Positions 31,015 to 50,967 of a stretch of 61,332 bases of DNA are shown in pieces. The stretch is taken from positions 1-61,332 of the forward strand of contig CADCWF010000251.1 in the NCBI GenBank assembly GCA_902806345.1, given 5' to 3'. Both the position numbers and the translations under genes were made by a program. The DNA comes from an uncultured Thermomicrobiales bacterium (GTDB lineage Bacteria; Chloroflexota; Chloroflexia; Thermomicrobiales; UBA6265). The stretch's first letter is position 1. Each line of letters starts with the position of its first letter. Below the pieces are notes generated by a model. The model ran no database searches, was not told the DNA's origin, and was given only the letters and a program-made list of their open reading frames with translations.

Positions 31015-31085
31015 TGCGGTCCCGCTGCCGAGGAGACGAGGGCATGGAACGACGCGGGAACGCGTTCGCCGGGCATACGCCACCG

Positions 31086-35687: not shown

Positions 35688-36632
35688 ATGGCGGAGCAGC
35701 GGGCGGCGGCCCTGCTCGGCCCGATCGAAGAGGCTGTACGCGATCTTCAGGATCGGACCGCGCACTACCTGGAGCGGCTGGATCTGGGGACCGATGCCAA
35801 CGCCGAGGCATTGCGGGAGGCGGGCGAAGCGCTCCGACTCGCGGCGGGGCGCATCGCGGCCGCGGCGGCCACGCCTGAAGCCGGCGTCCACCCGGCGACG
35901 ACGGGATCAAATGGTCGGAAGCGGATCCTCATCACCGGCGCCGGCGGCGGAATCGGCCAGGATCTGGCCGAGCGGCTCAAGGAGCGCTACGACCTGCGCC
36001 TCATGTACCGCAGCTCGGTGCCGGATGCGCCTCCGTCCCCCGATTTGGTGACCGCGGACATCGCGGACCTCAAGGCGGTCCTGCCGGCGATGGAGGGGAT
36101 CGACGCGGTCGTCCACCTCGCCGGCGAACCGGACCCGCGGGCCTCCTGGGAGGCGGTCCACGAGGCCAACATCATCGGCACCCGCAACGTGCTGGAGGCT
36201 GCTCGCCAGGCCGGCGTTGCGCGTGTCGTCTTCGCCTCGACCAACCACGTGATGGGCATGTACGACCGGGACCGACAGTGGCCCATCTATGCCGGACAAC
36301 CGGTCCGCCCCGACTCCCTCTACGGCGTCTCCAAGGCGTTCGGCGAGGCGCTCGGTCGCTACTACGCCGACCAATACGGCCTCGACGTTGTCTGCCTCCG
36401 CATCGGCTGGTTCTTGCCGGAGCCGAAGGACGAGATCTCTCGGTGGATGTGGCTGAGCCCGCGCGACTGCGCGCAAGTCGTTTGGCGAGCGATCGAGGCC
36501 GATGTCCGCTTCGGGATCTTCTACGCGATTTCCGCCAACGGCGGCCGCCACTGGGACATCACGGACACGATCGAGGTGCTCGGCTACCGACCGGAGGACG
36601 ACGCGGAGCGGTTCTTCGCCGAGCGTGGGTAG
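35688..36632 (+). CDS. NAD-dependent epimerase/dehydratase (uronate dehydrogenase-like extended SDR) with N-terminal helical extension
   Basis: ILITGAGGGIG, VVHLAG, FASTNHVMG, YxxxK (LYGVSK), and VCLRIGW. Confidence 0.88.
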   Translation: MAEQRAAALLGPIEEAVRDLQDRTAHYLERLDLGTDANAEALREAGEALRLAAGRIAAAAATPEAGVHPATTGSNGRKRILITGAGGGIGQDLAERLKERYDLRLMYRSSVPDAPPSPDLVTADIADLKAVLPAMEGIDAVVHLAGEPDPRASWEAVHEANIIGTRNVLEAARQAGVARVVFASTNHVMGMYDRDRQWPIYAGQPVRPDSLYGVSKAFGEALGRYYADQYGLDVVCLRIGWFLPEPKDEISRWMWLSPRDCAQVVWRAIEADVRFGIFYAISANGGRHWDITDTIEVLGYRPEDDAERFFAERG

Positions 36633-36674
36633 CAACGCGCCCTTGTGGTTCCGAAGCAAGCCGCCACCACCCGC

Positions 36675-36776
36675 GTCATCCCGAGCCCGCAGGCGAAGGA
36701 TTTCTTTCCCATTCGGCTTACCACGCACGAAAAAACACTGCTGCGACGGGGGATCTTTCGCTTCGCTCAGGATGAC
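36675..36776. repeat. REP-like palindromic element, family A
   Basis: GTCATCCCGAGCCCGCAGGCGAAGGATTTC ... GGATCTTTCGCTTCGCTCAGGATGAC, between convergent genes. Confidence 0.85.
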
Positions 36777-36960
36777 AAGGACAGGGGCGGGCGGGACGTT
36801 CGGCTCACGCGGAGTCCGTCTGGACAGTTCCGGTATTCGGCGCCGAGCCCCCACCCCCAGCTCTCCCTGAGCCCACCTCGGATCCCCGCGCTGGACCTTC
36901 TCCAGGCAGGGGAGGAGGCACCGCCGGGGCGTTGGACGAATCAACCACCTGGGATTGGAA

Positions 36961-37911
36961 TCAGGGACGGATCACGGCCTTGACGAAGCCGGGCGGCTTG
37001 TCGCGGAGATCGGCGTAGGCGCGGTCGACTTCGTCGAGGGCGTAGCGGTGGCTGACGAGGGACCCGAGGTCGATCAACCCCTTCGCCTCGAGCTCGAGAC
37101 CGATCCGCATGCTCTCCAGGAGGTCGGCCCGGCGGCGGACGTGGGCGTTGACGACGTCGATTGCCTTCCAGTTCCACATCCCGACATCGACTTGGCGGGG
37201 GCCGCCCTGGTGATAGCCGAGGATCGAGAGGACTCCGTGGGCGCGGACGAGCTTGCCGGCGAGGTCCAGCCCCGGCTGGGTGCCCGAGGCCTCGACGACC
37301 ACGTCGAACCCGCGGTCGCTCTGCCAGTGCCGGAACTCGGTCAGCGCGTACTCGGGCGGCAGGTCGGCCGGGTGGCAGGCCTCGTCGGCGCCGAGCGCCA
37401 GCGCCCGCTGCCGGGTCTCCTCCCGGACGTCAATGGCAACGATCCGGCTCGGCCCCCGCAGCTTGAGGAGCTGGAGCAGGCCGAGGCCCATGTAGCCCAG
37501 GCCGACAAGCGCTACCCGGTCGGCCAGTTCGATCGGCGTCCGCCGCTGGGCGTTGACGAGGCAGGCGAGGGGCTCGCCGAGGGCATTCTCATCGGCGACG
37601 TCGTCCGGGATCGGCAGCAGGAGCGTCGCATCGGCGAGGCAGAGGTCGGCGTAGGCGCGGTTGAAGAGCCCGGTCACTCGGTCGCCCTCGCGGAGCCGTT
37701 CCACCCCTGGACCGACCGCGACCACGACGCCGGCAGGCTCGTGCCCGAACCGGTGCGGGTAGCTGGCCACGCCGTCCGCCCACGGATGGAGCTCCGAGGC
37801 GCAGACGCCGCAGACGCCGAGCCGCACCAGCACCTCGCCCGGTCCCGGGTCCGGGGTGGGCAGATCGACCATCTCCGAGCGCTGGGGGGCAACCAGTTGA
37901 CTTGCACGCAT
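36961..37911 (-). CDS. Zinc-binding (MDR) sugar/polyol dehydrogenase
   Basis: GVCGVCASELH, GHEPAG, ENALGEPL, GLGYMG, and VVEASG. No structural-zinc Cys4 lobe. Confidence 0.9.
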   Translation of the reverse strand: MRASQLVAPQRSEMVDLPTPDPGPGEVLVRLGVCGVCASELHPWADGVASYPHRFGHEPAGVVVAVGPGVERLREGDRVTGLFNRAYADLCLADATLLLPIPDDVADENALGEPLACLVNAQRRTPIELADRVALVGLGYMGLGLLQLLKLRGPSRIVAIDVREETRQRALALGADEACHPADLPPEYALTEFRHWQSDRGFDVVVEASGTQPGLDLAGKLVRAHGVLSILGYHQGGPRQVDVGMWNWKAIDVVNAHVRRRADLLESMRIGLELEAKGLIDLGSLVSHRYALDEVDRAYADLRDKPPGFVKAVIRP

Positions 37912-37933
37912 TTCGGGTGAACCTCCGGCCTGT

Positions 37934-37978
37934 GCTCCCCCTCTCCCGATGCGCGGGAGAGGGGGCGGGGGGTGCGGG
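37934..37978. repeat. REP-like palindrome, family B
   Basis: 37934-37965 is identical over 32 nt to 40147-40178 (GCTCCCCCTCTCCCGATGCGCGGGAGAGGGGG). Confidence 0.85.
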
Positions 37979-38084
37979 CTCGGCGTCGGACGGCCGAGTT
38001 CCCGAAAACCTTCCATTGGCAGCCGTACTCGGGAGAGGGGTCTTTTCGGGGACCCCGAGGAGGGCGAGGTAAGCCTCCTCCGTC

Positions 38085-38951
38085 CTATCCCTTCAGCGCG
38101 CCCGATGCGAGCCCCTTGACGAAGTCGCGCTGGAAAACCAGGAACAGGACCGTCACCGGCAGCGACAGGATCAGGACGCCGGCCGTCATCAGCCCATGGT
38201 CGATGGCGAACCGGCCCTGGAAGAAGAGGATCCCGACCGGGAGCGTCCGCAGGTCGTCGGTGACGAGGAAGACGAGCGGCAGCAGGAGATCGTTCCAGCT
38301 CCAGAGGAACTCCAGCAAGGCGACCGTCACCAGGCCGGGGCGGGCGAGCGGGAGCATGATCTGCCAGAAGATCTGGAACTCGGAGGCGCCGTCGACCCGG
38401 GCCGCGTCGTCGAGCTCTCGCGGCAGATCCTTGAAGAAGGCGCGCATGATGAAGACGAAGATCGGGGCGGCGAGGGCGATGTCGGCGACGATGACGGAGG
38501 CGAGGCTGTCCAGCAGCCGGAAATCCCGCATCGTCACGTAGAGCGGGATGATGATCGCCGCGACCGGGATCGTCAGGCCGATCAGGAGGGCGTAGAGCAG
38601 GATCTTCTGGCCGGGGAAGCGGAGGCGACCGAAGGCGTAGCCGGCGAGCGAGGCGACGACGACCATGCCGACGACATCCACCACGGAGATGATCAGGCTG
38701 TTCTTGAAGTAGACCCCGAAGCGGCCGACCGTCCAGGCCTCGATCAGATTGTCGAGCGTCGGCGGGATCGGGGGCAGGAACGGGGACTGGATGATCTGGT
38801 CGCCGCTCTTGAAAGCGGTGAACCAGGCCAGCACTAGCGGCGCCACGGCGAAGACGAGCAGGATCGTCAGCGGCACGTAGACGAGCCACGAGCCGACGCC
38901 GAGCCGACCACGGCGGACGCCCGATGGGGCAACGATCGCGGGACTAGTCAT
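38085..38951 (-). CDS. Carbohydrate ABC permease (MalG-like)
   Basis: RAFFKDLPRELDDAARVDGA and WSWNDLLLPL. Confidence 0.93.
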   Translation of the reverse strand: MTSPAIVAPSGVRRGRLGVGSWLVYVPLTILLVFAVAPLVLAWFTAFKSGDQIIQSPFLPPIPPTLDNLIEAWTVGRFGVYFKNSLIISVVDVVGMVVVASLAGYAFGRLRFPGQKILLYALLIGLTIPVAAIIIPLYVTMRDFRLLDSLASVIVADIALAAPIFVFIMRAFFKDLPRELDDAARVDGASEFQIFWQIMLPLARPGLVTVALLEFLWSWNDLLLPLVFLVTDDLRTLPVGILFFQGRFAIDHGLMTAGVLILSLPVTVLFLVFQRDFVKGLASGALKG

Positions 38952-39885
38952 CGCCGCGCTCCCGGAGGGTGACGTTGACGACGGACGTGACGAGGATGAT
39001 CAGCGCCAGGGCGACCGCGATCGCCGAGCCGTAGCCGTACTGGTTCTTCTGGAACCCCTCCTTGAACATGTAGGTCGCCAGCACCTCGGTCGCCCGGATC
39101 GGGCCGCCCTGGGTCGTCGCCCAGATGATGTCGAAAACCTTGAAGGCGTCGAGCAGCGAGAGCAGCACGACGATGGTGATCGTGTTCCGCAGCGACGGGA
39201 TCGTGATGTCGAGGAAGGTCCGGCGACGGCCAGCGCCGTCGACCCGGGCCGCGTCGTAGAGAGTCGGGTCGATCCCCTGCATCCCGGCCAGGAGGATAAC
39301 GATGCTGAGGCCGAAGGTCATCCAGCTCGAGGCGACCGCCAGGGCCGGGAGGACGACGGCGAAGTCGCCGAGCCAGCCCCGCGCCAGGAAGCCGAGACCG
39401 ACGGCGTCGAGCGACGTGTTGAGGATCCCGGTCGGGGCGTAGATCCAGCGCCAGATCATGGCGGTGACGATCGAGGCCTGGACGACCGGCAGGAAGTAGC
39501 CGAGGCGGAAGAGGAGGCGGCCGCGGATATTCCCGGAGAGGAGTGCCGCCGCCACGAGCCCGACGACGAGGTTGAAGACCACGACGACGACCGTCCAGAG
39601 CAGGCTGTGCCGGAGCGCCTGCCAGAAGATCGGGTCGTCGATCAGGCGGCGGAAGTTGCCCAGACCGACCCACTCGCGCTCGACCGAGATCCCGTTCCAC
39701 TCGTAGAACGCCAGCCAGAACGTCTGCAGCGTCGGCCGCAGCACGAAGACGGCGTAGAGCAGGAAGACGGGCAGGATAAAGAGGTAGGCGGCGGCGTACC
39801 GCCGCAGCACGTAGCCGCGGACGTGCAACCGGCCGCGACCGGAAGACGCGGCGTCGATGCGTTGAGGGAACGGCCGGACCGCCAT
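38944..39885 (-). CDS. Carbohydrate ABC permease (MalF-like)
   Basis: WVGLGNF, LAGMQGIDPTLYDAARVDGA, and TQGGP. Confidence 0.93.
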   Translation of the reverse strand: MAVRPFPQRIDAASSGRGRLHVRGYVLRRYAAAYLFILPVFLLYAVFVLRPTLQTFWLAFYEWNGISVEREWVGLGNFRRLIDDPIFWQALRHSLLWTVVVVVFNLVVGLVAAALLSGNIRGRLLFRLGYFLPVVQASIVTAMIWRWIYAPTGILNTSLDAVGLGFLARGWLGDFAVVLPALAVASSWMTFGLSIVILLAGMQGIDPTLYDAARVDGAGRRRTFLDITIPSLRNTITIVVLLSLLDAFKVFDIIWATTQGGPIRATEVLATYMFKEGFQKNQYGYGSAIAVALALIILVTSVVNVTLRERGDD

Positions 39886-39939
39886 GGCGGAGGTCTCCTT
39901 GCGCCGGTTCGCGTCGATTCTCTCGGGCTTACCGGAGAG

Positions 39940-40192
39940 CCCTCACCCCTACTCGGGAACCCGAGGAGAGAGGGGAGCCCATCGGTCTTTGATTGCTGCC
40001 TCCACCTCCCTGGCCTTCGTCGTCCTGAGCGAAGCCAAGGATCTCTCCTTGGGGACCCGCCGCAGCGGCGTTCTTCGTCCGCCAATTGCCCGAGTCGGAG
40101 AGTGATCCTTCGGTTCGCTCAGGATGACGGGGTAGCTGGCCGGCCTGCTCCCCCTCTCCCGATGCGCGGGAGAGGGGGTTGGGGGGTGAGGG
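39940..40192. repeat. Mosaic repeat element: family B (39940-39979) + family A (40019-40128) + family B (40147-40192)
   Basis: Three palindromic units fill the 333-nt gap between the SBP and the first permease gene. Confidence 0.82.
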
Positions 40193-40218
40193 CTTTCCCG
40201 GACCGGCGAGCGCCGGGT

Positions 40219-41601
40219 CTACGCCCCGCAGGTCACCCCGCCCGGCTGGAGGTGGAGGTTCTCCGCCTTGGCCGCTTCCCAGGCCGCCTGGACCGCGGCG
40301 TTGAACTCCTCCGGCGACATCTGGCCGGCGAGCAGCGCCTGCAGGCCGTCGTAGGTGACGTCGGTCATCGTGGCCGGGGTGACGGTGTCGAGGAACGCGT
40401 GGATGGTGCCGTTTTCGCGGTGCTCGTTGCTGAGGGCGAACGCCTCTTCCAGCAGCGTCGGCAGCTCGATCTCGGTCAGGTCGATCTCGCCGACGGGGAC
40501 GCTGTCGCCGCTCTCCAGCAGCATCCGGCGGCTCTCGTCGCGGAAGAGCATGAAGTTCAGGACGTCCGCTGCCACGTCCGGCGCCGCCGTCTGGCTGTTG
40601 ATGTACCAGCCGGTGCCGATGTCCTCGGTCGGGTAAATCGGCGTGCCCTCAACCGGCGACGGCACCGCGAAGACGCTGAACTTGGCGATCTCGTCGCCGA
40701 GGTCGCGCTCGGCGTCGGCGATGATCCAGGGGCCGGTGTAGATCATCGGCACGTCGCCCCGCCAGAACTGGGCGACGACGTCGTCCTGGAGCTCGGCCAG
40801 GGGGTTGGGACCGAAGCAGCCGGCGTCGGCGAGCTCCTTCAGCTTGGCGGACGCCTGGACGAAGGGTTCCTCGTCCCAGCGGCCCTCGCCGAACATCACG
40901 TTGTCGACGCCTTCGGGGCCGGCGTACCGCCCCCAAAGCATCGACTGCCAGTGCGAGATCGGCCACTTGTCGGCGCCGCCGAGGCCGATCGGCATCGCGA
41001 AGCCGGCCTGGCTAAGGGTATCGCAGGCGGCCATCAGGTCGGCCCAGGTGGCGGGGATCTCGATGCCGTTCTCGGCGAACACGTCCTTGTTGTAGAACAT
41101 CAAGGTGGTCTCGACGCTGTCGCCGACCGCCCACAGCTTGCCGCCGGACGAGGTGTAGTTGACGATCGTCTCCGGGATGGTCTCGTTCCAGCCGAGTCCG
41201 CAGAAGTAGGGCGTCAGGTCGAGGGCGTGGCCGGCGGCGACGAGGGCCGCCGGTTGACCGGGTCCCGTGCCGCCCATCCAGATGTCCGGCCCCTCGCCGG
41301 CGTTGAGGGCCGGCAGCAGGGTCGGATTGAAGAGGCTGCTGCCGACGAAGGTGGACTCGATGGCCACGTTCGGGTGTTCCGCCATGTACTGCGCGTAGAT
41401 CTCGGTCAGGGCGTTGGTCGTCCCCGGCTCACCGTTGAGCCAAACCGTCAGTGAGACCGGCTCACCCGACTCCTGGGCGGCCGCTCGCCGCGTGCCGGCG
41501 AGTCCGGCGCCGGCTGTTGCCGCGAGACCGAGCGCGGTGCCGTGCTTGAGGATCGTGCGGCGGCTGATCGCGGCTCGCCCCTCCGGATTCTGATCGGACA
41601 T
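40219..41601 (-). CDS. ABC carbohydrate solute-binding protein with Tat-type signal
   Basis: SD AAGGAGG about 9 nt before ATG 41601. Signal ISRRTILK...RRAAAQ with no lipobox; MFYNKDVF...EIPATWADL. Confidence 0.92.
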   Translation of the reverse strand: MSDQNPEGRAAISRRTILKHGTALGLAATAGAGLAGTRRAAAQESGEPVSLTVWLNGEPGTTNALTEIYAQYMAEHPNVAIESTFVGSSLFNPTLLPALNAGEGPDIWMGGTGPGQPAALVAAGHALDLTPYFCGLGWNETIPETIVNYTSSGGKLWAVGDSVETTLMFYNKDVFAENGIEIPATWADLMAACDTLSQAGFAMPIGLGGADKWPISHWQSMLWGRYAGPEGVDNVMFGEGRWDEEPFVQASAKLKELADAGCFGPNPLAELQDDVVAQFWRGDVPMIYTGPWIIADAERDLGDEIAKFSVFAVPSPVEGTPIYPTEDIGTGWYINSQTAAPDVAADVLNFMLFRDESRRMLLESGDSVPVGEIDLTEIELPTLLEEAFALSNEHRENGTIHAFLDTVTPATMTDVTYDGLQALLAGQMSPEEFNAAVQAAWEAAKAENLHLQPGGVTCGA

Positions 41602-41770
41602 CGTCTCCATCCTCCTTGATGTGAAGTCGTGGCTCACCAATCGGAACCGCGACGCGTGATCGGCCTCCAGCGGCCACCAGTGGCTGTGCGAGCCCCGAGG
41701 CCAATAGAGCCGGCAGTGCCTCCTTCCATGCACCGCGTCCTCCGCCTAACGGTATCGGTCCCCGGCGGCC

Positions 41771-42802
41771 CTACGCCGAGTCCCGGACGATCAGCTCGTA
41801 GGGCATCTCGACGCGCCGCCCTTCGCCGACGACGGTGCCGGCGAGCCGCTCGAAGAGCATCTCGGCGGCGCGTCGGCCGAGGCGCTCCGGGAACTGGGCG
41901 ACGGTCGTCAGGGACGGGTTGGCAAGGCGGGCCACGGTGATGTCGTCGTAGCCGGCGAGGGCGATATCGGCCGGCACCCGCAGCCCGGCTTCGCGGATCG
42001 CGACGAGGGCGCCGAGGGCCATCATGTCGTTGGCGGCGAAGACCGCCCGTGGTCGGGGCGAGCGGGCCAGCAACTCCTTCATCGCGGCGTAGCCTCCCGC
42101 CTCGGTCGGATCGTTGCCGAAGGCCAGCATCTCCGCCTGGCCCTCGCCGCGCTCCGCCAGCAGCCGGCGGTAGGCGACTATCCGACCCTCCCGCCGGTGA
42201 TGGTTGTCGGCGGCGGCCACCATCCCGAGCGGGGCGTACCCCCGGTCGATCAGGTGCTCGACCAACCGGCCGGCGGCGGCCTCGTCGTTCAGGAAAATGG
42301 CGTCGAACCGGGGCGCCGTCGTCGGCTCGGCAAACTCGCCGAAGACCACGACCGGGACGCCGTCGGCGAGGAGGGGGGCGAAGTCGTCGGCCTTGAGCTG
42401 GAACGGGGTGGCGATTATGCCGTCGACCCGCGCCCGCTGGACCGCCCGCAGGGCGCGCAGCTCCTTGGCGCGGAGGCCGTCGGTGTTGTAGGCGACGAGG
42501 TCGTAGCCGCGATCGTCGGCGATGTCCTGGATCCCCCGCTCGAAGGCGGGGTAGAAGGGGTTGGTGATGTCCGGGATCAGGCTGGCGACGAGCAGGGACT
42601 TGCCGGTCCGCAGGCTGCGGGCGGCCCCGTCGGCGACGTAGCCGAGGTCGGCGATGGCCGCCTGGACGCGCTCGCGGGTGGCCTCCGAGACGGCGACGAG
42701 GGCGCGATCGTTGAGGACCAGGGAGACGACCGTCTGCGAGACGCCGGCGGCGCGGGCGACATCGGCCTGAGTCGGTCGCTTCCGTGTCGACGCGCCGGTC
42801 AT
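41771..42802 (-). CDS. LacI family transcriptional regulator
   Basis: PTQADVARAAGVSQTVVSLVLN HTH, AARSLR hinge, FAANDMMALG, and GYDDI. Confidence 0.96.
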   Translation of the reverse strand: MTGASTRKRPTQADVARAAGVSQTVVSLVLNDRALVAVSEATRERVQAAIADLGYVADGAARSLRTGKSLLVASLIPDITNPFYPAFERGIQDIADDRGYDLVAYNTDGLRAKELRALRAVQRARVDGIIATPFQLKADDFAPLLADGVPVVVFGEFAEPTTAPRFDAIFLNDEAAAGRLVEHLIDRGYAPLGMVAAADNHHRREGRIVAYRRLLAERGEGQAEMLAFGNDPTEAGGYAAMKELLARSPRPRAVFAANDMMALGALVAIREAGLRVPADIALAGYDDITVARLANPSLTTVAQFPERLGRRAAEMLFERLAGTVVGEGRRVEMPYELIVRDSA

Positions 42803-42845
42803 CGCCCCGCCTCGCCCGTCGAGAGATTCCGCCGGTAGGGATTGC

Positions 42846-42894
42846 TACGTATTAGCGTTACGTATTAGTATCCCGCGTAACAGTTCTTTGTCAA
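42846..42894 (-). promoter_or_regulatory. Sigma-A promoter of the lacI-like gene with tandem operator-like sites
   Basis: Minus-strand TTGACA (42894-42889), then 16 nt, then GATACT. TACGTATTAG repeats directly at 42846-42855 and 42859-42868, each with a TACGTA palindromic core. Confidence 0.65.
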
Positions 42895-42985: not shown

Positions 42986-44047
42986 ATGCGGATTGGCATT
43001 GTCGGCGCGGGTTGGATGGGCCACGAGCACACCACGGCCTGGCGGAACAACGCGCCGCGAGGCACGGTCGTCGCCGTCGCCGACGCCTCCTCCGAGCGCG
43101 CACGCCACCTGGCCGGAACGCTGCCGGACGCCGATGTCCGCACCTTCGCGGACCTCCCGGCGATGCTCTCCGACGGCGAGATCGATGCCGTCGACATCTG
43201 CCTGCCCCACCACCTCCACACCCAGGCCATCCTCCAGGCCGCCCGCGCCGGCGTGGCGATCCTCTGCGAGAAGCCGGTCTGCACGACGCTCGACGACGCG
43301 GCGACCATCGGGGCGACGCTGGCCGAGACCGGCGTCACCTTCATGGCCGCCCACAACCAGCTCTTCCAGCCCAGCCTGGTCGAAGCCAAGCGGCTGCTCG
43401 CCAGCGGCGCGCTCGGCCGTCCGTTCGTGATCCGCTCGATCGAGGCGGTCCAGAACCGTGGCTTCGTCACCGGCAAGGTGCCGATCGACCTCGGCGGCGG
43501 CGAGAGCCCCTGGGCCTGGCGGGCGGACAAGGCGAAGATGGGCGGCGGCGAGGTGCTCGACACCGGCTGGCACGCCACCTACCGCCTGCTGGCGCTCGCC
43601 GACGAGCGGCCGATCGAGGTCGTCGCGATGACCGACCGCTTCCACGTCAAACAGCTCGACGTCGAGGACACCGGGGTGGTCATGGTCCGCTTCGCCTCCG
43701 GCGCGATTGGCGAGATTCTGACCAGTTGGGCGTTCGCCCCGGTCGGTGGCTGGCACTTCGAAGTCGGCGCCCAGCACGGCAGCCTGGCCGGCTCGCGAAC
43801 CCGCCTCGTCCACCAGTTGCACGGCTGGACGGAGGCGGTCGAGATCGCGAACGAACCGGCGCACACCTTCACCGACGAGGTCGCCCATTTCCTCGATGTC
43901 GTCCAGCGCGGCGCCCCCTCGCAGGCGACCTTCGCCGACGCGGCGCGGGTGCTCCAGGTGACGATGGCCATCTATGCCTCGGCCGAGCAGAAGCGGATCA
44001 TCGCGCTCCCCGAGGACCCGGTCGTGCCAGGCGAGCCGGTGGCGTAG
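42986..44047 (+). CDS. Gfo/Idh/MocA family oxidoreductase
   Basis: IGIVGAGWMG, DAVDICLPHHLH, ILCEKP, MAAHNQLF, and GGGEVLDTGWH. Confidence 0.94.
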   Translation: MRIGIVGAGWMGHEHTTAWRNNAPRGTVVAVADASSERARHLAGTLPDADVRTFADLPAMLSDGEIDAVDICLPHHLHTQAILQAARAGVAILCEKPVCTTLDDAATIGATLAETGVTFMAAHNQLFQPSLVEAKRLLASGALGRPFVIRSIEAVQNRGFVTGKVPIDLGGGESPWAWRADKAKMGGGEVLDTGWHATYRLLALADERPIEVVAMTDRFHVKQLDVEDTGVVMVRFASGAIGEILTSWAFAPVGGWHFEVGAQHGSLAGSRTRLVHQLHGWTEAVEIANEPAHTFTDEVAHFLDVVQRGAPSQATFADAARVLQVTMAIYASAEQKRIIALPEDPVVPGEPVA

Positions 44048-44125
44048 GAAACCTGGATCGACGCTCGCTGGCGCAGGGGCGCGGCGGAGGGAGCACGGCG
44101 AACCGGAAGCGGTCACGGGGGGACG

Positions 44126-45019
44126 ATGTACTCGACGCTGGGACCGGAGGCGCTCGGGATCCGCGGGCTATCGCTGGAGGAGGCGATCGACCTCGCCCAG
44201 GCGGCGGGGTTCACCGGGCTTGCCTTCGACGTCAAGGTCGCTGCCGCACTCGCCGACGAGCACGGCGTCGCCTACGTCCGGGATCTCTTTGATCGGGCGG
44301 GCGTCCGGCCGGGGCACTGGAACCTGCCGGTCAACTGGCGGCAGGAGGAGGGGTGGGAGGCCGAACTCGGCGAACTACCGCGGCTGGCGTCGGTCGCCGC
44401 GGCGCTCGGGGCGCCCAGGACGGCGACCTTCATGCCCTCCGGCTCGAACACGCGGGCCTACGAGGAGAACGTCGAGTGGCACGTCGCCCGGCTGCGCCCG
44501 ATTGCCGAGGCGTTGCGGATCGAGGGGTGCCGGTTCGGGATCGAATACATCGGGCCGAAGACGTTCCGGGACCAGTTCGCCCACGCGTTCGTCCACACCC
44601 TCGCCGGCACCCGGGAGCTGATCGCGGCGATCGGCGGCGACAACGTCGGCCTGATGCTCGACGCATGGCATCTCTACACCGCTGGCGAGACGGCCGCCGA
44701 CCTCGCCGGTCTGACGAACGACGACGTCGTCGTCGTCCACGTCAACGACGCCCCGGCCGGGGTAACGCGGGACGAGCAGATCGACACCGTCCGCGCCCTA
44801 CCGGGGGAGACGGGGGTCATCGACCTGGGGTCGTTCATGGCCAAGCTCTCGGCGATCGACTACGACGGCCCGGTCATGCCGGAGCCCTTCAGCCAGCGGC
44901 TGGTCGATCGCGCGGCGACCGACCCGGCCGGGGCGGCCGCCGAGGCGGCGGGGTCGATGCGAACGCTTTGGCGGGCCGCCGGCTTGGCCCAGGGGGAGCA
45001 GGTTCGCGCCGGAGGCTGA
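44126..45019 (+). CDS. Sugar-phosphate isomerase/epimerase TIM barrel (AP_endonuc_2 / IolE-IolI-like)
   Basis: FGIEYIG, LMLDAWHL, VHVNDA, RALPGETGVIDL, and PEPF metal-binding pattern. Confidence 0.9.
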   Translation: MYSTLGPEALGIRGLSLEEAIDLAQAAGFTGLAFDVKVAAALADEHGVAYVRDLFDRAGVRPGHWNLPVNWRQEEGWEAELGELPRLASVAAALGAPRTATFMPSGSNTRAYEENVEWHVARLRPIAEALRIEGCRFGIEYIGPKTFRDQFAHAFVHTLAGTRELIAAIGGDNVGLMLDAWHLYTAGETAADLAGLTNDDVVVVHVNDAPAGVTRDEQIDTVRALPGETGVIDLGSFMAKLSAIDYDGPVMPEPFSQRLVDRAATDPAGAAAEAAGSMRTLWRAAGLAQGEQVRAGG

Positions 45020-45071
45020 ATTCCCCCGCAGGACGCCGCGCAGACGCGCTTTGCTCGAAGGGAGGTTCTCG

Positions 45072-46460
45072 ATGCCCGTCGTCGACCGCCGCGAGTTCGG
45101 AGGACGCTTCTCCGTCAAGGAGAACTCCCAGCGGCTCGCGAACTACCGCTACCTCGAGATCCAACTGATGGAGATGATCGGCGGCTGGTGCCACACCATG
45201 CCCCAGCTCGCGGTCAAGGCCACCTTCGGCTACCACGTCTACGACCACGCCCAGGCAGCCGACCTCCTGAGCGAACGGCTCGAGCAGTTGCGGGCGGCCC
45301 GGACGAGCCAGGAGCCGGCGACCGACGCCTTCGCAGAGTTGTGCGAGTACGTCTGGCTGCTCGACTCGACGATCGACCGCCTGGTCGCGGTCTACCGGGT
45401 GCTGGAGCCGCACCTGGTCAGCTCTTACGTCTACCACGCCGACGCCACCGACCCCCTCAGCGACGCCCCGACGGTGCGGCTGCTCCGCCAGTTGGCGGCG
45501 ATGGGGCAATCCCACGTCGCCTGGGGCCAGGCGGTGCTCGACGGACTGACGCGGAGCCCGGACGAGCGGCGGCGGGCGCTGGAGGTGCAGGCCGACATCG
45601 AAGCCCGGCTGGTCGCGTGCGGCGGGGTGACGGGGCAGGGGATCGAGTCCCACTGGCTGACGTTCCACAGCGCCAAAGAGGAGGAGAAGTCGCCGGCCCG
45701 TGTCAAGCGGGGCCGTGGCGGCTACAAGTTCCGCAAGCAGTGCGCGCCGCTCGATCACCCGGTCGTCGAGGCGCCCTTCTGGTTCTCCGGCGACCCGGAC
45801 GACTTCAAGGTCTACCAGGCTGACGACGAGTGGTCGCTGGAGGGGTTCCGCCACAAATTCCACCAGTTGCTCTATGGCGAGGTCGAGACGACCGACCGGA
45901 TGGGCAAGATGCTCGCCGAGTTCCCCGACCTCCCCTGGGAGATGCGGATGGAACTCGCCCACCAGATGTGGGACGAGGCCCGCCACATCGAGATCGTCGC
46001 CAAAGTCGTCGAAGACGAGTTGGGCGGCGAGCTGGGCTACGGCCCGTGGACGCTGGTCTGGTGGTGGATGCAGAACGAAGCCGACCCCCTGCGGCGGATC
46101 GCGGTCACCAACTCCTGGGCCGAAGCGAACCTGATGCACACCCTGCGGGAGTGGCGGGAGAAGGCCGAGGCGCGCGGCTTAACCCGGATCGCCGAGCTGT
46201 CCGACTACCTCCAGGCGGACGAGCGGACCCACGTCCGGTTGGCCACCGACTGGATCCGGGCCCTGACCGAAGAGGACCCCTCCAAGCGGGACGACCTCGT
46301 CCACTGGGGCCGCGAGGCGATCGCCCGCATCCAAAACTTCAACGCCCGCCGCGACGGCGAGATCGTCACAAAGACGGCCGGGGCCGACGCCCGCTTCACC
46401 TTTCAGAAACCGGGCGACGCCTCGCTCGTGGGGGCGGTCGCGGAGGTCGCGGGCGACTGA
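45072..46460 (+). CDS. Tandem ferritin-like domain protein (DUF455-like di-iron C-domain, degenerate N-domain)
   Basis: SD GGAGG. C-domain ligand set HQLLYGE ... WDEARH ... AEAN ... ADERTH. The N-domain echoes it as YLE ... YDHAQA ... LEPHL ... GQSHV. Confidence 0.8.
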   Translation: MPVVDRREFGGRFSVKENSQRLANYRYLEIQLMEMIGGWCHTMPQLAVKATFGYHVYDHAQAADLLSERLEQLRAARTSQEPATDAFAELCEYVWLLDSTIDRLVAVYRVLEPHLVSSYVYHADATDPLSDAPTVRLLRQLAAMGQSHVAWGQAVLDGLTRSPDERRRALEVQADIEARLVACGGVTGQGIESHWLTFHSAKEEEKSPARVKRGRGGYKFRKQCAPLDHPVVEAPFWFSGDPDDFKVYQADDEWSLEGFRHKFHQLLYGEVETTDRMGKMLAEFPDLPWEMRMELAHQMWDEARHIEIVAKVVEDELGGELGYGPWTLVWWWMQNEADPLRRIAVTNSWAEANLMHTLREWREKAEARGLTRIAELSDYLQADERTHVRLATDWIRALTEEDPSKRDDLVHWGREAIARIQNFNARRDGEIVTKTAGADARFTFQKPGDASLVGAVAEVAGD

Positions 46461-46612
46461 GGTACGGACTGAGCGAGGTCCGCCCCCCAAGGAAGGAGGT
46501 GGTGTCGCCGAAACGAATGGATCGACGAGTCGGCCGCGCCGGAGAGGCGCCGACGCGATCCCCAGGACCGGTTGACCCCAGCTGGGTAACCGGCGAGACG
46601 AGGAGGTCGAAG

Positions 46613-47905
46613 GTGAGAACGGAGACGAGGATCCGCACCGTCGGGCTGGTGCTCGCCCTGGTGGCGATGCTCGCGCCGGCGTTGCTGGCGCGCACGTCCG
46701 AACCGGTCGCGGCCCAGGCATCCGGTGAGGTGGCGCTCTGGACGGAGTTCACCGCCGGCGGCGAGAAGACCGGCATCGAGCGGTTGATCGAGGACTGGAA
46801 CGCCCAGGGCAACGGGGTCACGATCAGCCACCGGCCGATCGGCAACGAGCAGTTCTTCACCGTCATCCGGACGGCGCTCGCCGGCGGCCAGCCGCCGGAT
46901 CTGCTGCAGTACGAGGGGTACCAGCAGACCCGGGACTTCGCCGGGGCCGGCCACCTGACCGACCTGACGGAGTGGTGGACCGCGAACAGCGAGAACTTCG
47001 TGCTGCCGGAGGCGGGCGCTCGGGCCTGCACCTTCGAGGGCAAGATCTACTGCGTCCCGTTCACCTACCAGACCGGCTGGCAGATCTACTACAACCCCGA
47101 GATCCTGGAGGCGAACGGGATCGAGGTGCCGCAGACCTACGAAGAGTTCCTGGCCGCCGCCGAGACGCTCAAGGCCGCCGGGGTGACCCCGATCTCGCTG
47201 GGCGCCAAGGACGGTTGGCCGTCGACCCACTGGTACATGGCCTTCCTGGTCCAGCGCTGCGGCGTCGAGACGGTCTACCAGGCGATCGAACGGAACGGCG
47301 CCAGCTTCACGGACGAGTGCTTCGTCCAGGCCGCCACCGACCTCCAGAGCCTGGCCCAGGCGGGTCACTTCTCGCCGGGCATGGTCAGCGACGACTTCGG
47401 CACCGCCGAGGCGCTCTTCCTCGCCGGGCGGGCCGCTTTCTTCCAGACCGGCAGTTGGTTCGCCTCGGGCTGGGAGGAAACCCCACCCAATTTCGAGGTC
47501 GGGATCATGCCGTTCCCGAGGCTGACCGACGCCGTCAACACCGAGGACATCACCGGCGCCGTGACCCACGTCCTGGCGATCCCGGCCGCGGCGGCGAACC
47601 CGGAGGCGGCGATGGACGTCCTGGAATGGATGTCCAGCGAGGAGGCCGCGAACACCTGGGCCGCCAACGGCAACATCTCCATGTACGAGGGCGCCGTCGA
47701 AGCCAGCGCGCCGCAGGTCATCAAGGATCTGTGGGCGACCGTGCAGGAGGCGGAGCGGGCCCTCCCGTGGATCGAGAACGAGCTGCCGCCGGGCGTCGGT
47801 GAGGACAAGGTCTACACCGGCACCGTCGCCTTGCTCAGTGGCTCGTTGACGCCAGAGGCGTTCTCTCAGGCGATCCAGGACGCACTCGAAGCGTCGGCCG
47901 AGTAG
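46613..47905 (+). CDS. ABC carbohydrate solute-binding protein (Sec-type signal)
   Basis: SD AGGAGG then GTG 46613. Hydrophobic signal ending VAAQ; IYYNPEIL...EVPQTYEEF and AAFFQTGSW. Confidence 0.92.
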   Translation: MRTETRIRTVGLVLALVAMLAPALLARTSEPVAAQASGEVALWTEFTAGGEKTGIERLIEDWNAQGNGVTISHRPIGNEQFFTVIRTALAGGQPPDLLQYEGYQQTRDFAGAGHLTDLTEWWTANSENFVLPEAGARACTFEGKIYCVPFTYQTGWQIYYNPEILEANGIEVPQTYEEFLAAAETLKAAGVTPISLGAKDGWPSTHWYMAFLVQRCGVETVYQAIERNGASFTDECFVQAATDLQSLAQAGHFSPGMVSDDFGTAEALFLAGRAAFFQTGSWFASGWEETPPNFEVGIMPFPRLTDAVNTEDITGAVTHVLAIPAAAANPEAAMDVLEWMSSEEAANTWAANGNISMYEGAVEASAPQVIKDLWATVQEAERALPWIENELPPGVGEDKVYTGTVALLSGSLTPEAFSQAIQDALEASAE

Positions 47906-47938
47906 GCAAACGGCGGCGCTGGTGAATCCGCGCCGGAT

Positions 47939-47976
47939 GGAAGGGGAGGCCGGCCGAGCGGCGGGCCTCCCCCTCC
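47939..47976 (+). other. Intergenic stem-loop after the SBP gene
   Basis: GGAAGGGGAGGCC (47939-47951) pairs with GGCCTCCCCCTCC (47964-47976) at 12 of 13 positions. Confidence 0.7.
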
Positions 47977-47992
47977 GAACCGAGACGAAGGG

Positions 47993-48955
47993 ATGCGATC
48001 CATGAGCACGCAGGTCGCCCCCGTAACCAGCGCCGGGGCCGCGGTGCCGGCGGCGAGGCTCGCAACGCGGACGCGGTCGGTGCCGAGACACTGGCTCCTG
48101 GCGCTGCCGTTCCTGCTGCCGGCGCTGGTCTTCTACGTCGTCTTCCTGCTGGTGCCGCTGCTCGGCACGCTCGCCCTCAGCCTGACGGAGTGGACCGGGT
48201 TCAACTTCGCCGACATCCGCTTCGTCGGCTCCGACAACTTCCGGGCCATGGGTCAGGACCCCGTCTTCTGGCAGTCGCTCCGGCACAACGTCGGCTTCCT
48301 CGGCGGGTCGGTCGTCTTGAAGACGGTCGTCGCCCTCTTGCTGGCCCTGGCGCTCGACCAGCGGTTGCCCTTCAGCAACTTGTTTCGCGGGGTCTACCTG
48401 ATGCCGGCCGTCATCTCGCTGGTCGTCGTCGGCGTCGTCTTCACGCTGCTCTTCAGCCCCTCGCTCGGGCTGGTCAACCCGTTCCTGACCGCGATCGGGC
48501 TCGGCCGCTTCGCCGGGGCCTGGCTGGGCGACCCGGCCCTGGCGCTCCCGATCCTGATCGTGATCGACGCCTGGCACGGCTTCGGGCTCTACATGTTCCT
48601 CTTCATCTCCCGCCTGATCGCCATCCCCCAGGATCTCCACGACGCCGCCCACGTCGACGGCGCCGGCGGCTGGCAGGCGATCCGCGACGTCACCCTGCCG
48701 CTGATGAAGAGCATGGTCGCGATGGTCGTCCTGCTGGCGGCGATCGAGAGCTTGAAAATGTTCTCGCTCGTCTACGTGATGACCAAGGGCGGCCCCAGCC
48801 ACGCCACGGAGGTGCTCTCGACCTGGGCCTACTTCCAGGCCTTCACCGCCAACAAGATCGGCTACGGCAGCGCGATCCTGGTCGTCTTGCTGATCATCAC
48901 CTTCGTCCTGGCCTACATCCAGGTGACCCGGTTCCAGTTCGCCGACGAGGCGTAG
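47993..48955 (+). CDS. Carbohydrate ABC permease (MalF-like)
   Basis: FVGSDNF, IAIPQDLHDAAHVDGA, and TKGGP. Confidence 0.93.
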   Translation: MRSMSTQVAPVTSAGAAVPAARLATRTRSVPRHWLLALPFLLPALVFYVVFLLVPLLGTLALSLTEWTGFNFADIRFVGSDNFRAMGQDPVFWQSLRHNVGFLGGSVVLKTVVALLLALALDQRLPFSNLFRGVYLMPAVISLVVVGVVFTLLFSPSLGLVNPFLTAIGLGRFAGAWLGDPALALPILIVIDAWHGFGLYMFLFISRLIAIPQDLHDAAHVDGAGGWQAIRDVTLPLMKSMVAMVVLLAAIESLKMFSLVYVMTKGGPSHATEVLSTWAYFQAFTANKIGYGSAILVVLLIITFVLAYIQVTRFQFADEA

Positions 48956-49012
48956 AGCGGCCACCGGGAGCGGCCCCTGTCGCGACCGGACGACCGCAGG
49001 GAGGAGGAACGC

Positions 49013-49840
49013 ATGCGCCGCGGGACCGCGATCAAGATGGCGATTTTCTACCCGTTCTTCCTGCTGATCTCGGCGGTCATCCTCTACCCGTTGGTGTGGA
49101 TGGTCTACAGCTCGTTCAAGAGCAACGACGACATCTTCTCCGATGTCTTCGCCTTGCCGCAGGTGCTCTATCTGGGCAACTACCAGACGGTCTTTTCCGA
49201 AGGCGCAATGGGGACCTACTTCAAGAACAGCCTCCTCATCTCGGTCGTCTCGGTTGCCGGGTTGCTGGCCTTTTCGGCGCTGGCCGCGTATGCCTTCGCC
49301 ACCTTCGAGTTCCGCGCCAAGAACGTGCTCTTCGTCGTCTTCCTCCTCGGCCTGATGGTGCCCCCGCAGGCGCTGATCATCTCCGGCTTCAAGCTGATGT
49401 CAATCCTCCGGTTGATCGACACCTACTGGGCGCTGATCTTCACCTACTTCGGCTGGACCTCGTTCGGCATCCTGGTGCTGCGTAACTTCTTCCAGTCGGT
49501 GCCGCAGGAGATCCGCGACGCGGCCAAGGTCGACGGCGCCGGCCACTGGCAGCTCTTCACCCGGATCATGCTGCCGCTGGCCCGGCCGTCGCTGGCGACG
49601 ATCGCGATCTTCAACTTCATGTGGGTCTGGAACGAGTTCATCTACCCGCTCGTCTACACGCAGTCGAACGACAAGTACACCGTGCCCCTGGGCGTCCTCT
49701 TCCTCAACAGCCAGTACAACATCGAGTGGGGCCTCCAGATGACCGGCCTGACGGTGGCGACGCTGGTGCCGCTCCTCGTCTACCTGATCTTCCAGCGGCA
49801 GTTCGTCCGCGGCATCATGGCCGGCGCGCTCAAGGGGTAG
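49013..49840 (+). CDS. Carbohydrate ABC permease (MalG-like)
   Basis: RNFFQSVPQEIRDAAKVDGA and WVWNEF. Confidence 0.93.
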   Translation: MRRGTAIKMAIFYPFFLLISAVILYPLVWMVYSSFKSNDDIFSDVFALPQVLYLGNYQTVFSEGAMGTYFKNSLLISVVSVAGLLAFSALAAYAFATFEFRAKNVLFVVFLLGLMVPPQALIISGFKLMSILRLIDTYWALIFTYFGWTSFGILVLRNFFQSVPQEIRDAAKVDGAGHWQLFTRIMLPLARPSLATIAIFNFMWVWNEFIYPLVYTQSNDKYTVPLGVLFLNSQYNIEWGLQMTGLTVATLVPLLVYLIFQRQFVRGIMAGALKG

Positions 49841-49849
49841 GGCGCCGAC

Positions 49850-50110
49850 GTGATTGACCCAGCGGGAAAGCCGATCCGGCTCTCTGGACACGACGCAAGC
49901 TACCAGGAGCGGCGCGGCTTCGTGCCAGAGGAGGTGGAGGCGGCGATTCGGGGCAGCGATTGGCAGCCGGCCTGTGGGGACCGACTCGAAGGGTCGATCG
50001 ACCTGCCGTTCGACGCAGTTGTCCAACCACCCGATCGCGGCCGAGGCATAGGACAACGTTCCCGACTGCCGATGTCAGGGTCGGGAGGCGGATGCGGTGA
50101 TCGACTCCGA
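49850..50110 (+). pseudogene. Probable decayed DUF4258-like (RelE/colicin-D-like toxin) gene
   Basis: KPIRLSGHDASYQERRGFVPEEVEAAIRGSDWQPACGDRLEGSIDLPFDA resembles the DUF4258 N-half as I recall it (xSxHAxxxxxxRGIxxEEVxxAI). Similarity then breaks down and the frame runs into the convergent gene. Confidence 0.45.
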
Positions 50111-50133
50111 TCGGAAGCAGCCGATCGAAGGCT

Positions 50134-50967
50134 TCAGTCCAGCTTGAAGTACTTGAACGTCTCGGCGTACTCACCATGGTCCGGGAAGCGTTCGGCATCC
50201 TCCCTGGCCCACTTGCGGATCTCCGGCTCCGGGTCCCACTCGCCCATCTGGCTCTTGTGGCAGCGGAGCGCCGCCAGCTTCGTCTCCATGTAGGCGGTGA
50301 TGTCGATCGCTACGTCGGGCGCGTTCGCCCCGGCCAGATAGACCTCGCGCACCTTGTGCGGCTCCAGCCCCTCGGCCAGCAGCTCGGGGAAGGTCATCCG
50401 GTCGCGGGCGGCGGGGTAGACCGCATCCAGGGTTGCCTCGCCGGCGGCGCGGTGGTCGGGGTGGTTCAGGTAGTTCTGGCCAACGAAGCGGACGGTCGGG
50501 TCCTGGCAGACGACGACGTCCGGCCGCAGCGTCCGGATCACCCGCACGAGCTCCTTCCGCATCGCCAGGTCCGGCACCAGCATCGCGTCGGCGTAGCCGA
50601 GGAACTGGACCTCCTGGACGCCGAGGACGGCGCAGGCGTCGCGCTGCTCGGCGGTCCGGGTGGCGACCAGCGCCTCCGGCGTCACCGCCGGATCCTCGCT
50701 CCCCTTGTCGCCGGAGGTGAGCAGGACGTACGTGACGTGGTGTCCCTCCGCCACCCAGCGGGCGACGGCACCGGCGCAGATGAACTCGGCGTCGTCCGGG
50801 TGGGCGAAGATGACCGCGATCCGGTTGGGACCGGACGGGTCCGGGTGGCGCTGGGCGTCTTCGGCGGCCTCGAACGACTCCGCGTCGACTGCCGCCGACA
50901 GGCGCGCGTCCTCGTCGCCCTCCGGCTCTCCGCTCGGCCCGTGGTCCTGTGCCGCCATCCCTGCCAA
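50134..50967 (-). CDS. PIG-L/LmbE family deacetylase (MshB/Mca/BshB-like)
   Basis: AHPDDAE and HPDH zinc motifs, and KLAALRCHKSQ. Confidence 0.92.
   Translation of the reverse strand: MAGMAAQDHGPSGEPEGDEDARLSAAVDAESFEAAEDAQRHPDPSGPNRIAVIFAHPDDAEFICAGAVARWVAEGHHVTYVLLTSGDKGSEDPAVTPEALVATRTAEQRDACAVLGVQEVQFLGYADAMLVPDLAMRKELVRVIRTLRPDVVVCQDPTVRFVGQNYLNHPDHRAAGEATLDAVYPAARDRMTFPELLAEGLEPHKVREVYLAGANAPDVAIDITAYMETKLAALRCHKSQMGEWDPEPEIRKWAREDAERFPDHGEYAETFKYFKLD

Follow-up and report, generated by a model that had tools for sequence, protein, structure and literature searches.

The 61,332-nucleotide window analysed here (contig CADCWF010000251.1 of assembly GCA_902806345.1, from an uncultured Thermomicrobiales bacterium) carries at 36961-49840 a functional unit with two arms, a divergon centred on the gene for a LacI-type regulator. 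The locus is a LacI-controlled divergon for sugar oxidation and uptake of a known type, and its novelty lies in a conserved, uncharacterised enzyme, a DUF455-like protein with a predicted di-iron site, that is expressed in situ. A first-pass annotation of the DNA had described 35688-50967 as a 15-kb, hydrolase-free sugar-oxidation locus with two importers. Reading frames were picked by third-position G+C, because the window has about 70% G+C, and named by profile scans with Pfam and NCBIfam, which confirmed all the genes that had been listed:

35688-36632, plus strand: short-chain dehydrogenase/reductase (SDR), Epimerase family; nearest NCBIfam model Azf, 213 bits against a cut-off of 400
36961-37911, minus strand: zinc-dependent alcohol dehydrogenase (Zn-ADH), ADH_N and ADH_zinc_N; last gene of the minus operon
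38085-38951, minus strand: CUT1-type permease A2, BPD_transp_1; overlaps A1
38944-39885, minus strand: CUT1-type permease A1, BPD_transp_1; overlaps A2
40219-41733, minus strand: solute-binding protein A (SBP-A), CUT1 type, SBP_bac_1 and SBP_bac_8
41771-42802, minus strand: LacI-family repressor, with LacI helix-turn-helix and Peripla_BP_3; first gene of the minus operon
42803-42976, no strand: divergent control region between LacI and Gfo/Idh/MocA
42977-44047, plus strand: Gfo/Idh/MocA protein, GFO_IDH_MocA and C-terminal domains
44126-45019, plus strand: AP_endonuc_2 protein, xylose-isomerase-like TIM barrel (PF01261, 95.7 bits)
45072-46460, plus strand: DUF455-like, putative di-iron protein of 462 amino acids (PF04305, 41.2 bits against a cut-off of 34.3)
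about 46499 or 46613 to 47905, plus strand: solute-binding protein B (SBP-B), CUT1 type, SBP_bac_1 (135.6 bits)
47993-48955, plus strand: CUT1 permease B1, BPD_transp_1
49013-49840, plus strand: CUT1 permease B2, BPD_transp_1; ends the plus operon
50134-50967, minus strand: PIG-L deacetylase, BshB-like (111.7 bits against a cut-off of 182.5)

The minus arm comprises LacI, SBP-A, permeases A1 and A2 and Zn-ADH; the plus arm comprises the Gfo/Idh/MocA, AP_endonuc_2 and DUF455-like proteins, SBP-B and permeases B1 and B2. These domains, together with operator-like repeats in the divergent promoter region, agree with a LacI-regulated CUT1 sugar-uptake operon in which binding of LacI is predicted. 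Neither importer has an ATPase gene of its own within the locus, as is often the case for CUT1 importers. The profile scans revealed no glycoside hydrolase (GH) or sugar kinase in 35688-50967, and since all non-coding gaps are of 340 bp or less, none is hidden in the interval; on this point the first-pass annotation was right. With no GH in 36961-49840, the locus is not a GH-containing polysaccharide utilisation cluster. Domain scans of 35-51 kb found no genes for Rieske proteins, ferredoxins, reductases or regulators of the MocR/GntR type, and no riboswitch or any other Rfam family was detected when 34-52 kb was scanned.

Transcription, control and conservation of the divergon

Assembled contigs of four metatranscriptomes were mapped onto 34-52 kb. 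These RNA contigs carry no strand and mix strains at 95-100% identity, and their depth is a crude measure of expression, by which the genes for the Gfo/Idh/MocA, AP_endonuc_2 and DUF455-like proteins have a mean depth of 20-60 and permease B1 one of 20-90, falling to 8 or less beyond 49625. SBP-B is the top-expressed gene of the locus (29-181, and 90-180 in most runs). The flanking bins 34000-35802 and 50828-52000 reach at most 9, and the plus operon stands at 5-30 times its flanks. SBP-A has a depth of 10-41 over 40010-41211, and the expression of the two arms differs several-fold. Single RNA contigs join Gfo/Idh/MocA to AP_endonuc_2 (43576-44791), AP_endonuc_2 to the DUF455-like gene (44080-45163) and the latter to SBP-B (46198-46884), and one covers SBP-B, B1 and B2 (47252-49650, X2). 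On the minus arm, the LacI/SBP-A junction is bridged by 41378-42415 (X3) and 41380-42116 (X2). Three DNA runs are flat across the same stretch at a depth of 3-39, and contig C349 of the same genome has a far lower depth in these RNA runs, so that the profile is one of expression and not of carried-over DNA. The first-pass annotation had proposed a redox route for an unusual sugar, cyclitol or glycoside, and the bridging contigs, from Gfo/Idh/MocA to B2 and across LacI/SBP-A, support a redox locus whose genes are co-regulated and serve a sugar-like compound. The public runs that contain the stretch are metagenomes and metatranscriptomes of biocrust and soil. In three of the four RNA runs one base is missing at 46483, in the non-coding spacer between the DUF455-like gene and SBP-B, which is either a strain difference or an assembly error.

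The control region has two direct repeats, TACGTATTAG, at 42846-42855 and 42859-42868, to which LacI is predicted to bind and from which it would be released by the substrate or an intermediate. A promoter scan points to a promoter-like site on the minus strand, TTGACA-16-GATACT (42894-42867), that overlaps the operator-like motif, and the TACGTATTAG repeats lie between this site and a TTGCTA box on the plus strand. The motif TTGCTACGTATTAG..ACG[T/A]ATTAGTAT..TGTCAAT is kept in the window and in three of the related loci described below (L002, L005, L046). Across the whole genome, ACG[AT]ATTAG occurs at this site and at one unrelated site only.

We fetched 56 loci from public genomes (referred to by L numbers) and compared them with the proteins of the window by tblastn. 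The block from Zn-ADH to permease B2 recurs in related Chloroflexota genomes: its gene order is unchanged in L002, L005 and L046 (63-83% identity), and L001 has part of it. Orthologues of Zn-ADH (72-76%) hold the same position in all four loci and those of permeases A1 and A2 (78-83%) are found in the first three, whereas SBP-B orthologues (62-72%) adjoin the DUF455-like gene in a wider set (L002, L004, L005, L006, L030, L037, L041, L046). The genes thus stand together by more than chance, since the order of the block recurs and the block is transcribed as operons. In public genomes, the DUF455-like protein has its closest relatives in metagenome-assembled Chloroflexota (Chloroflexia, Thermomicrobiales, Anaerolineales) and Actinomycetota (Thermoleophilia, Gaiellales). 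The distribution of the family is sparse and scattered, with 3 carriers among 401 genomes sampled in the phylum and 4 among 31 near relatives. Between phyla the cluster genes are nevertheless 65-80% identical, a pattern consistent with an accessory catabolic trait that has spread horizontally between soil bacteria.

The two arms may nevertheless be two independent modules that have only their regulator in common and form no single pathway: on the minus strand uptake of a polyol or oligosaccharide with the Zn-ADH, and on the plus strand a route through the Gfo/Idh/MocA, AP_endonuc_2 and DUF455-like proteins with an importer of its own. SBP-A and SBP-B are just 29% identical, the several-fold difference in expression points the same way, and other lineages pair the DUF455-like gene with SBP-B alone (L004, L006, L030, L037, L041) or with a different SBP. 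We nonetheless consider such a mosaic rather unlikely. The order of the whole block is kept in three to four genomes, and in other arrangements the DUF455-like gene has Zn-ADH as a neighbour more often than any other gene, in many cases directly upstream, which ties an enzyme of the minus arm to one of the plus arm.

The core of the 15-kb locus originally delimited thus stands, at 36961-49840, and both of its edges fall away. The SDR gene is convergent with Zn-ADH and the PIG-L gene with permease B2; the SDR is absent from the flanks of the block in L001, L002, L005 and L046, and PIG-L is not beside the block in the syntenic loci. Their RNA depths in the metatranscriptome contigs are 0.65-8.6 and 0.05-11, respectively. 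Because they are convergent, absent from syntenic loci and weakly expressed, both lie outside the unit, as had been suspected from the start. The SDR, which resembles Azf and uronate dehydrogenases, has about 75 extra N-terminal amino acids before the Rossmann fold (35688-35910), and its Pfam match begins at residue 145 of a long open reading frame starting at 35493. Further upstream, a third importer (29024-34200, minus strand), absent from the first-pass description, consists of a permease, an ATPase with a TOBE domain (29983-31131) and an SBP_bac_8/1 protein; its ATPase is the only one near the locus. A sulfatase gene (32777 to about 34200, minus strand) goes with this importer and was rejected as a member of the unit, since relatives do not have it in synteny with the block. 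The upstream IlvE was likewise rejected, being a housekeeping equivalog (352.5 bits against 279) that is not syntenic in relatives. At least four more sulfatase paralogues are encoded in the host genome.

The sugar enzymes and the DUF455-like protein

Pairs of Gfo/Idh/MocA and AP_endonuc_2 proteins are found in inositol catabolism, in the breakdown of levoglucosan and in the 3-keto oxidation/elimination of O- and C-glycosides. They define these routes, and the locus might accordingly be read as an ordinary pathway for myo-inositol (iol), levoglucosan (lgd) or the cleavage of 3-keto- or C-glycosides, a reading that gains from family-level matches in the PDB to scyllo-inositol dehydrogenase, DgpA and IolI. 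However, every equivalog score is far below its cut-off. The Gfo/Idh/MocA protein scores 124.5 bits against 355 for IolG (TIGR04380), 92.3 against 650 for levoglucosan dehydrogenase (NF052479) and 26.6 against 650 for the BT_2159 family. Its PDB matches are at the level of the family (E about 1e-19 to 1e-20; DgpA, E 2e-18) and include 1,5-anhydro-D-fructose reductase (AFR; 2glx, 4koa) and aldose-aldose oxidoreductase besides scyllo-inositol dehydrogenase and DgpA. To judge by these likenesses it is an NAD(P)-dependent dehydrogenase or reductase of a sugar or cyclitol; its start is probably the ATG at 42986. The AP_endonuc_2 protein matches no NCBIfam equivalog and not IolE, has no paralogue in the host genome, and has just two PDB relatives, the unannotated 3u0h (E 5e-29) and, weakly, IolI (E 6e-8), with no solved relative among deglycosidases. 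From its family it is predicted to be an isomerase, dehydratase or lyase.

The Zn-ADH (ATG start at 37911, preceded by GGAGG) is a medium-chain dehydrogenase resembling polyol, sorbitol and threonine dehydrogenases, and its best NCBIfam matches, IolM (98 bits against 450) and also Tdh, are far below their cut-offs. The nearest solved relatives of SBP-A, whose true start is probably downstream of 41733, are binders of xylo-oligosaccharides and chitin oligosaccharides (E 1e-30 to 1e-20), and those of SBP-B are xylo-oligosaccharide binders (E 1e-37 to 1e-32); for SBP-B a GTG at 46613, immediately before the signal peptide, is an alternative start.

The first-pass annotation had left room for the enzymes to map to a fully known pathway, and none of them reaches a curated NCBIfam equivalog cut-off. 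The locus has no equivalog IolG with an IolE-type dehydratase, no equivalog levoglucosan dehydrogenase, and no glycoside 3-dehydrogenase equivalog with a deglycosidase-type AP_endonuc_2 protein. In 35-51 kb there is also no MocDEF with MocR, and the resemblance to rhizopine (moc) catabolism is functional only. The host assembly, of 377 contigs and 90% complete, has canonical iolB (310.7 bits against 205) and iolD (876 against 715) adjacent to each other on another contig (C89:31426-34120; L060, L062), and the standard ring-opening route for myo-inositol is thus present outside the window. To our knowledge none of the iol, lgd and 3-keto- or C-glycoside routes includes a ferritin-like di-iron enzyme. 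Taken with the low scores, this makes a known pathway very improbable.

The DUF455-like protein matches PF04305, a profile of 247 positions, over residues 263-410 only, and in precomputed data all of its homologues carry this domain. A library-wide search returned more than 450 homologues at 70-92% identity, all unnamed; in the library clustered at 50%, one tight cluster is followed by full-length relatives at 29-44% identity. An AlphaFold 2 (AF2) model (pLDDT 89.4, pTM 0.89) has two helical bundles, 15-182 and 242-427, with a disordered linker between them. The two halves are homologous (hhalign probability 97.6%, E 4e-12), the N-terminal lobe being a degenerate duplicate in which the ExxH ligands are lost. 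In the C-terminal lobe, each of the residues E270, E302, H305, E351, E384 and H387 is either invariant or shared by at least 90% of 47 sequences, which reach down to 23% identity, and in the model these residues sit on helices 256-283, 289-316, 339-367 and 371-398. Sequence and model together show that the protein is a duplicated ferritin fold with a complete E/ExxH/E/ExxH set of di-iron ligands.

This ligand set and the helical-bundle fold are common to the DUF455/ferritin-like superfamily (MiaE, AurF, acyl-ACP desaturase, PaaA/PaaC, toluene monooxygenase). In pairing a catalytic lobe with a degenerate one, the protein is reminiscent of PaaA/PaaC and of the alpha and beta subunits of multicomponent monooxygenases, to which the fold matches are weak. 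Unlike the DUF455 profile, the protein of the window is a fused tandem duplicate, and it has no solved relative: a sequence search of the PDB found none, and Foldseek against the PDB gave generic matches only, at E of at least 0.18 (ferritin, Dps, bacterioferritin, TenA, PqqC, desaturase, PaaA/C, toluene-monooxygenase). No functional study of DUF455 was found in the literature searched and no exact copy of the protein in public contigs. Among 72,556 plasmids tblastn found one weak match, to a Geobacillus DUF455 protein, and none on rhizobial plasmids.

As those Foldseek matches are to ferritin, Dps, bacterioferritin and TenA-like proteins, the gene could be a passenger that encodes a ferritin- or rubrerythrin-like protein for iron storage or oxidative stress. 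Such a role seems remote to us. The gene is transcribed together with the enzyme gene before it and the SBP gene after it, the protein keeps 70-90% identity across phyla and is always found in sugar clusters, distant relatives likewise lie within sugar operons, and the two-lobed architecture of 462 amino acids is unlike that of storage ferritins.

Gene neighbourhoods of the family and the hydrolases of the host

The first-pass annotation had staked its reading on linkage of the di-iron gene in relatives. The linkage is found: besides the syntenic block, the family is tied to sugar genes in about 50 other loci, and distant two-lobed relatives (29-44% identity) also lie beside sugar genes, in one case PfkB and DeoC, in another an Fe-dependent alcohol dehydrogenase and a sugar transporter of the major facilitator superfamily (MFS), and in a third GH38, Gfo/Idh/MocA, SDR and MFS genes. 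Neighbours were counted in the 24 of the 56 loci that have enough flank. Zn-ADH is the commonest (17 of 24), followed by a protein of about 710 amino acids without a Pfam domain, which is GH42/GH96-like (16), GH106-like proteins (12), GH13 (10), a ureidoglycolate-lyase-like cupin (10), a URO-D-like protein (8), AP_endonuc_2 (7), Gfo/Idh/MocA (6) and SBP-B (6). In most other lineages the usual order begins with LacI, an SBP, two permeases, one or two GH13 genes, Zn-ADH and a GH106-like protein of 1,133 amino acids. It continues with the ureidoglycolate-lyase-like cupin, the DUF455-like gene and a URO-D-like or AP_endonuc_2 gene, and ends with the 710-residue protein, a lyxose-isomerase-like cupin, a nucleoside-hydrolase-like protein and a B12-binding protein.

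In 15 of the 56 loci the URO-D-like protein (389 amino acids) is encoded directly downstream of the DUF455-like gene. It has an invariant HLHVCG motif, which we take to be the zinc site of MtaA-type corrinoid methyltransferases, and further invariant cysteines. An MtaC-like B12-binding protein is encoded near it in 5-6 of these 15 loci, and the count in the 24 well-flanked loci gives a B12-binding protein in 4. The pair looks, from these motifs, like a corrinoid methyltransferase module within a glycoside cluster. One of the 15 loci is L016 (11549-12718 and 16393-17085), and the others are L011, L013, L014, L017, L021, L022, L024, L026, L030, L034, L035, L037, L041 and L048.

The 710-residue family matches no Pfam or NCBIfam profile. 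It has an invariant GGCFCxxC motif and orthologues in L001, L005, L007, L009, L012-L016 and others; more than 1,900 homologues reach 65% identity, none of them named. An AF2 model (pLDDT 76, pTM 0.84) matches the alpha-agarase of GH96 (E 2e-20) and also GH42, GH151 and GH106, which makes the protein a probable glycosidase of an undescribed family and the family a candidate for a new one among the glycoside hydrolases. In two loci of different gene arrangement, genes for 2Fe-2S and molybdopterin-binding subunits of the aldehyde-oxidase/xanthine-dehydrogenase type lie downstream of the cluster (L046:15113-17975, L055:20845-21371), which may be coincidence.

These neighbourhoods qualify the description of the locus as hydrolase-free, which is correct for the locus itself and fails for the wider system. 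In L005 an operon of the window's type runs straight on into a GH42/GH96-like gene and GH13, and most other lineages have GH106-like and GH13 neighbours. The host itself carries, on contig C349, a GH42/GH96-like gene (3537-5666, minus strand; L067) with GH13, a second LacI, an SBP and two permeases, and a Gfo/Idh/MocA gene divergent from this operon. A palindrome just upstream of GH13 and within the stretch that separates it from the divergent Gfo/Idh/MocA gene, TGCAATCGTTTGCA (in C349:12911-13458), differs from the motif of the window and is likely to be the operator of the second LacI. A regulon shared with C349 was rejected on account of the different operator and the much lower RNA depth. 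A search of the 90%-complete host genome revealed no GH106-like protein, neither of the two cupins and no methyltransferase module. The locus thus works and is induced without a linked hydrolase, and the enzyme family as a whole is part of glycoside-degrading systems.

A proposed route and its parallels

We put at about 0.6 the probability that the LacI-controlled divergon imports one or two neutral sugar-like compounds through its two CUT1 importers and converts them by redox chemistry. One such compound, or two related ones, would enter through the two ATP-binding cassette importers; the Gfo/Idh/MocA and Zn-ADH enzymes would oxidise or reduce ring hydroxyls or ketones, and the AP_endonuc_2 enzyme would isomerise, dehydrate or eliminate. 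The DUF455-like protein, to go by its ligand pattern, may supply an O2-dependent step beyond those of ordinary sugar enzymes. As GH13 and the GH42/GH96-like gene are on another contig under a different LacI, the locus probably handles a released molecule of mono- or disaccharide size.

One possibility, which we favour over the others but at less than even odds, is that the di-iron step is hydroxylation of a carbon beside an ether oxygen. This would lead to O-demethylation of a methylated sugar or cyclitol, or to hydroxylation at C-1 of an anhydro-alditol, and the product would be an ordinary sugar usable by central metabolism. The suggestion draws on the adjacency of the corrinoid methyltransferase module in 15 loci and on the mannose/lyxose-isomerase-like cupins of relatives. 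It draws also on the constant Zn-ADH partner, which parallels the pairing of a P450 sugar demethylase with a Zn-ADH (PMC10033563), on the moc model of rhizopine breakdown in a passage of PMC10107442, and on the missing C-1 hydroxylase for 1,5-anhydromannitol (PMC12441222). That the two-lobed DUF455-like proteins form a new family of soluble di-iron oxygenases acting directly on carbohydrates, by hydroxylation of the ether-adjacent carbon, is more doubtful still.

Several points weigh against the proposed route and its di-iron step. Metal binding and use of O2 by the DUF455-like protein are predictions from its ligand residues, and expression was gauged from the strandless, strain-mixed RNA contigs described above. 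The two SBPs resemble oligosaccharide binders distantly and name no substrate, and each arm could have a substrate of its own. The GH operon on C349 has a LacI and an operator of its own and is not co-expressed. Carriers of the family include Anaerolineales, an order that may contain anaerobes; there the gene lies beside the corrinoid methyltransferase module, and this module could demethylate by itself. Finally, a conserved reductase or ferredoxin partner is found in none of the about 56 loci.

The last point fits an oxidase that needs no external electrons. The DUF455-like protein might act as a four-electron oxidase in the manner of myo-inositol oxygenase, cleaving a C-C bond of a keto-cyclitol or keto-sugar supplied by the Gfo/Idh/MocA and AP_endonuc_2 enzymes; the ring would be opened, or a glycosidic link broken, with all electrons coming from the substrate. 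Such cleavage explains the missing reductase better than ether-adjacent hydroxylation does. It would also suit the recurrence of Gfo/Idh/MocA beside close and distant relatives of the DUF455-like protein, and the weak resemblance of the Zn-ADH to IolM. On the other hand, the host has the canonical hydrolytic iolD/iolB route, the known ring-cleaving inositol oxygenase is an HD-domain enzyme and not a ferritin fold, and ring cleavage leaves the cupin isomerases and the methyltransferase module of relatives unexplained. We regard C-C cleavage as unlikely.

If ether-adjacent hydroxylation is the true reaction, the protein would be a sugar O-demethylase other than a P450, or the missing aerobic C-1 hydroxylase of anhydro-alditols, active in situ in desert soil crusts. 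It could then fill a gap in the removal of methyl ethers from sugars by aerobes without a P450, or in the aerobic opening of anhydro-alditols such as 1,5-anhydroglucitol and 1,5-anhydromannitol. We know of no di-iron carboxylate oxygenase in textbook sugar catabolism. The interest of the protein lies in its conservation across two phyla within sugar clusters and in the place of its gene among the better expressed ones of the host in biocrust and soil metatranscriptomes; its reaction, once found, would give DUF455-type proteins a function.

Among known systems, the inositol pathways (Bacillus IolG/IolE; Thermotoga IolG/IolM/IolO), DgpA-C, LgdA-C and BT2157-2160 use the same Gfo/Idh/MocA and AP_endonuc_2 families, and the Thermotoga inositol pathway includes a Zn-ADH. 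The inositol, levoglucosan and 3-keto-glycoside routes differ in having no di-iron enzyme and in equivalog cut-offs from which the scores of the locus are far removed; with no equivalog score, and with iolB and iolD elsewhere, the locus lies outside these pathways, though it uses the same enzyme families.

A parallel to hydroxylation beside an ether oxygen is offered by Sinorhizobium morelense, in which AFR is followed by O2-dependent C-1 hydroxylation of 1,5-anhydromannitol to mannose (PMC12441222, section 5.1). According to the same 2025 review, the C-1 hydroxylase of aerobic soil bacteria is still unidentified and has been guessed to be P450-like (PMC12441222). The locus shares a Gfo/Idh/MocA reductase with this route, AFR structures (2glx, 4koa) are among its best PDB matches, and its relatives carry lyxose/mannose-isomerase-like cupins. 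The likeness to AFR is family-level (E 1e-19), other members of the Gfo family being at least as similar, and serves as a lead only. In marine Flavobacteriia, a P450 with its redox partners oxidatively demethylates 6-O-methyl-D-galactose, and a conserved adjacent Zn-ADH, whose reaction is unknown, is required for growth on the methyl sugar (PMC10033563). The DUF455-like family is similar in placing a putative oxygenase, conserved beside a Zn-ADH, in a glycan locus. It differs in having a ferritin-like di-iron fold and no redox partner genes, where the marine system has a P450 fold with such genes present, and here the Zn-ADH resembles polyol and threonine dehydrogenases.

The rhizopine moc genes of Rhizobiaceae (MocA, MocB, MocC, MocDEF, MocR) provide a third comparison. 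MocC is itself an AP_endonuc_2/IolE-like protein. The differences are that moc has a ferredoxin-oxygenase complex, MocDEF, and a MocR-type regulator, whereas the locus has a single soluble, two-lobed protein of ferritin fold, a LacI, and no ferredoxin or reductase. According to a passage in PMC10107442, citing Bahar 1998, the moc genes combine the MocA dehydrogenase, an oxygenase complex and the inositol pathway, and the oxygenase step readies an O-methylated cyclitol (rhizopine, 3-O-methyl-scyllo-inosamine) for that pathway. The likeness is one of function: both systems join a dehydrogenase of the Gfo/Idh/MocA family to an importer that relies on an SBP and to an oxygenase step, putative in our case, and both have an inositol pathway alongside, which in the Thermomicrobiales host is the separate iolB/iolD cluster.

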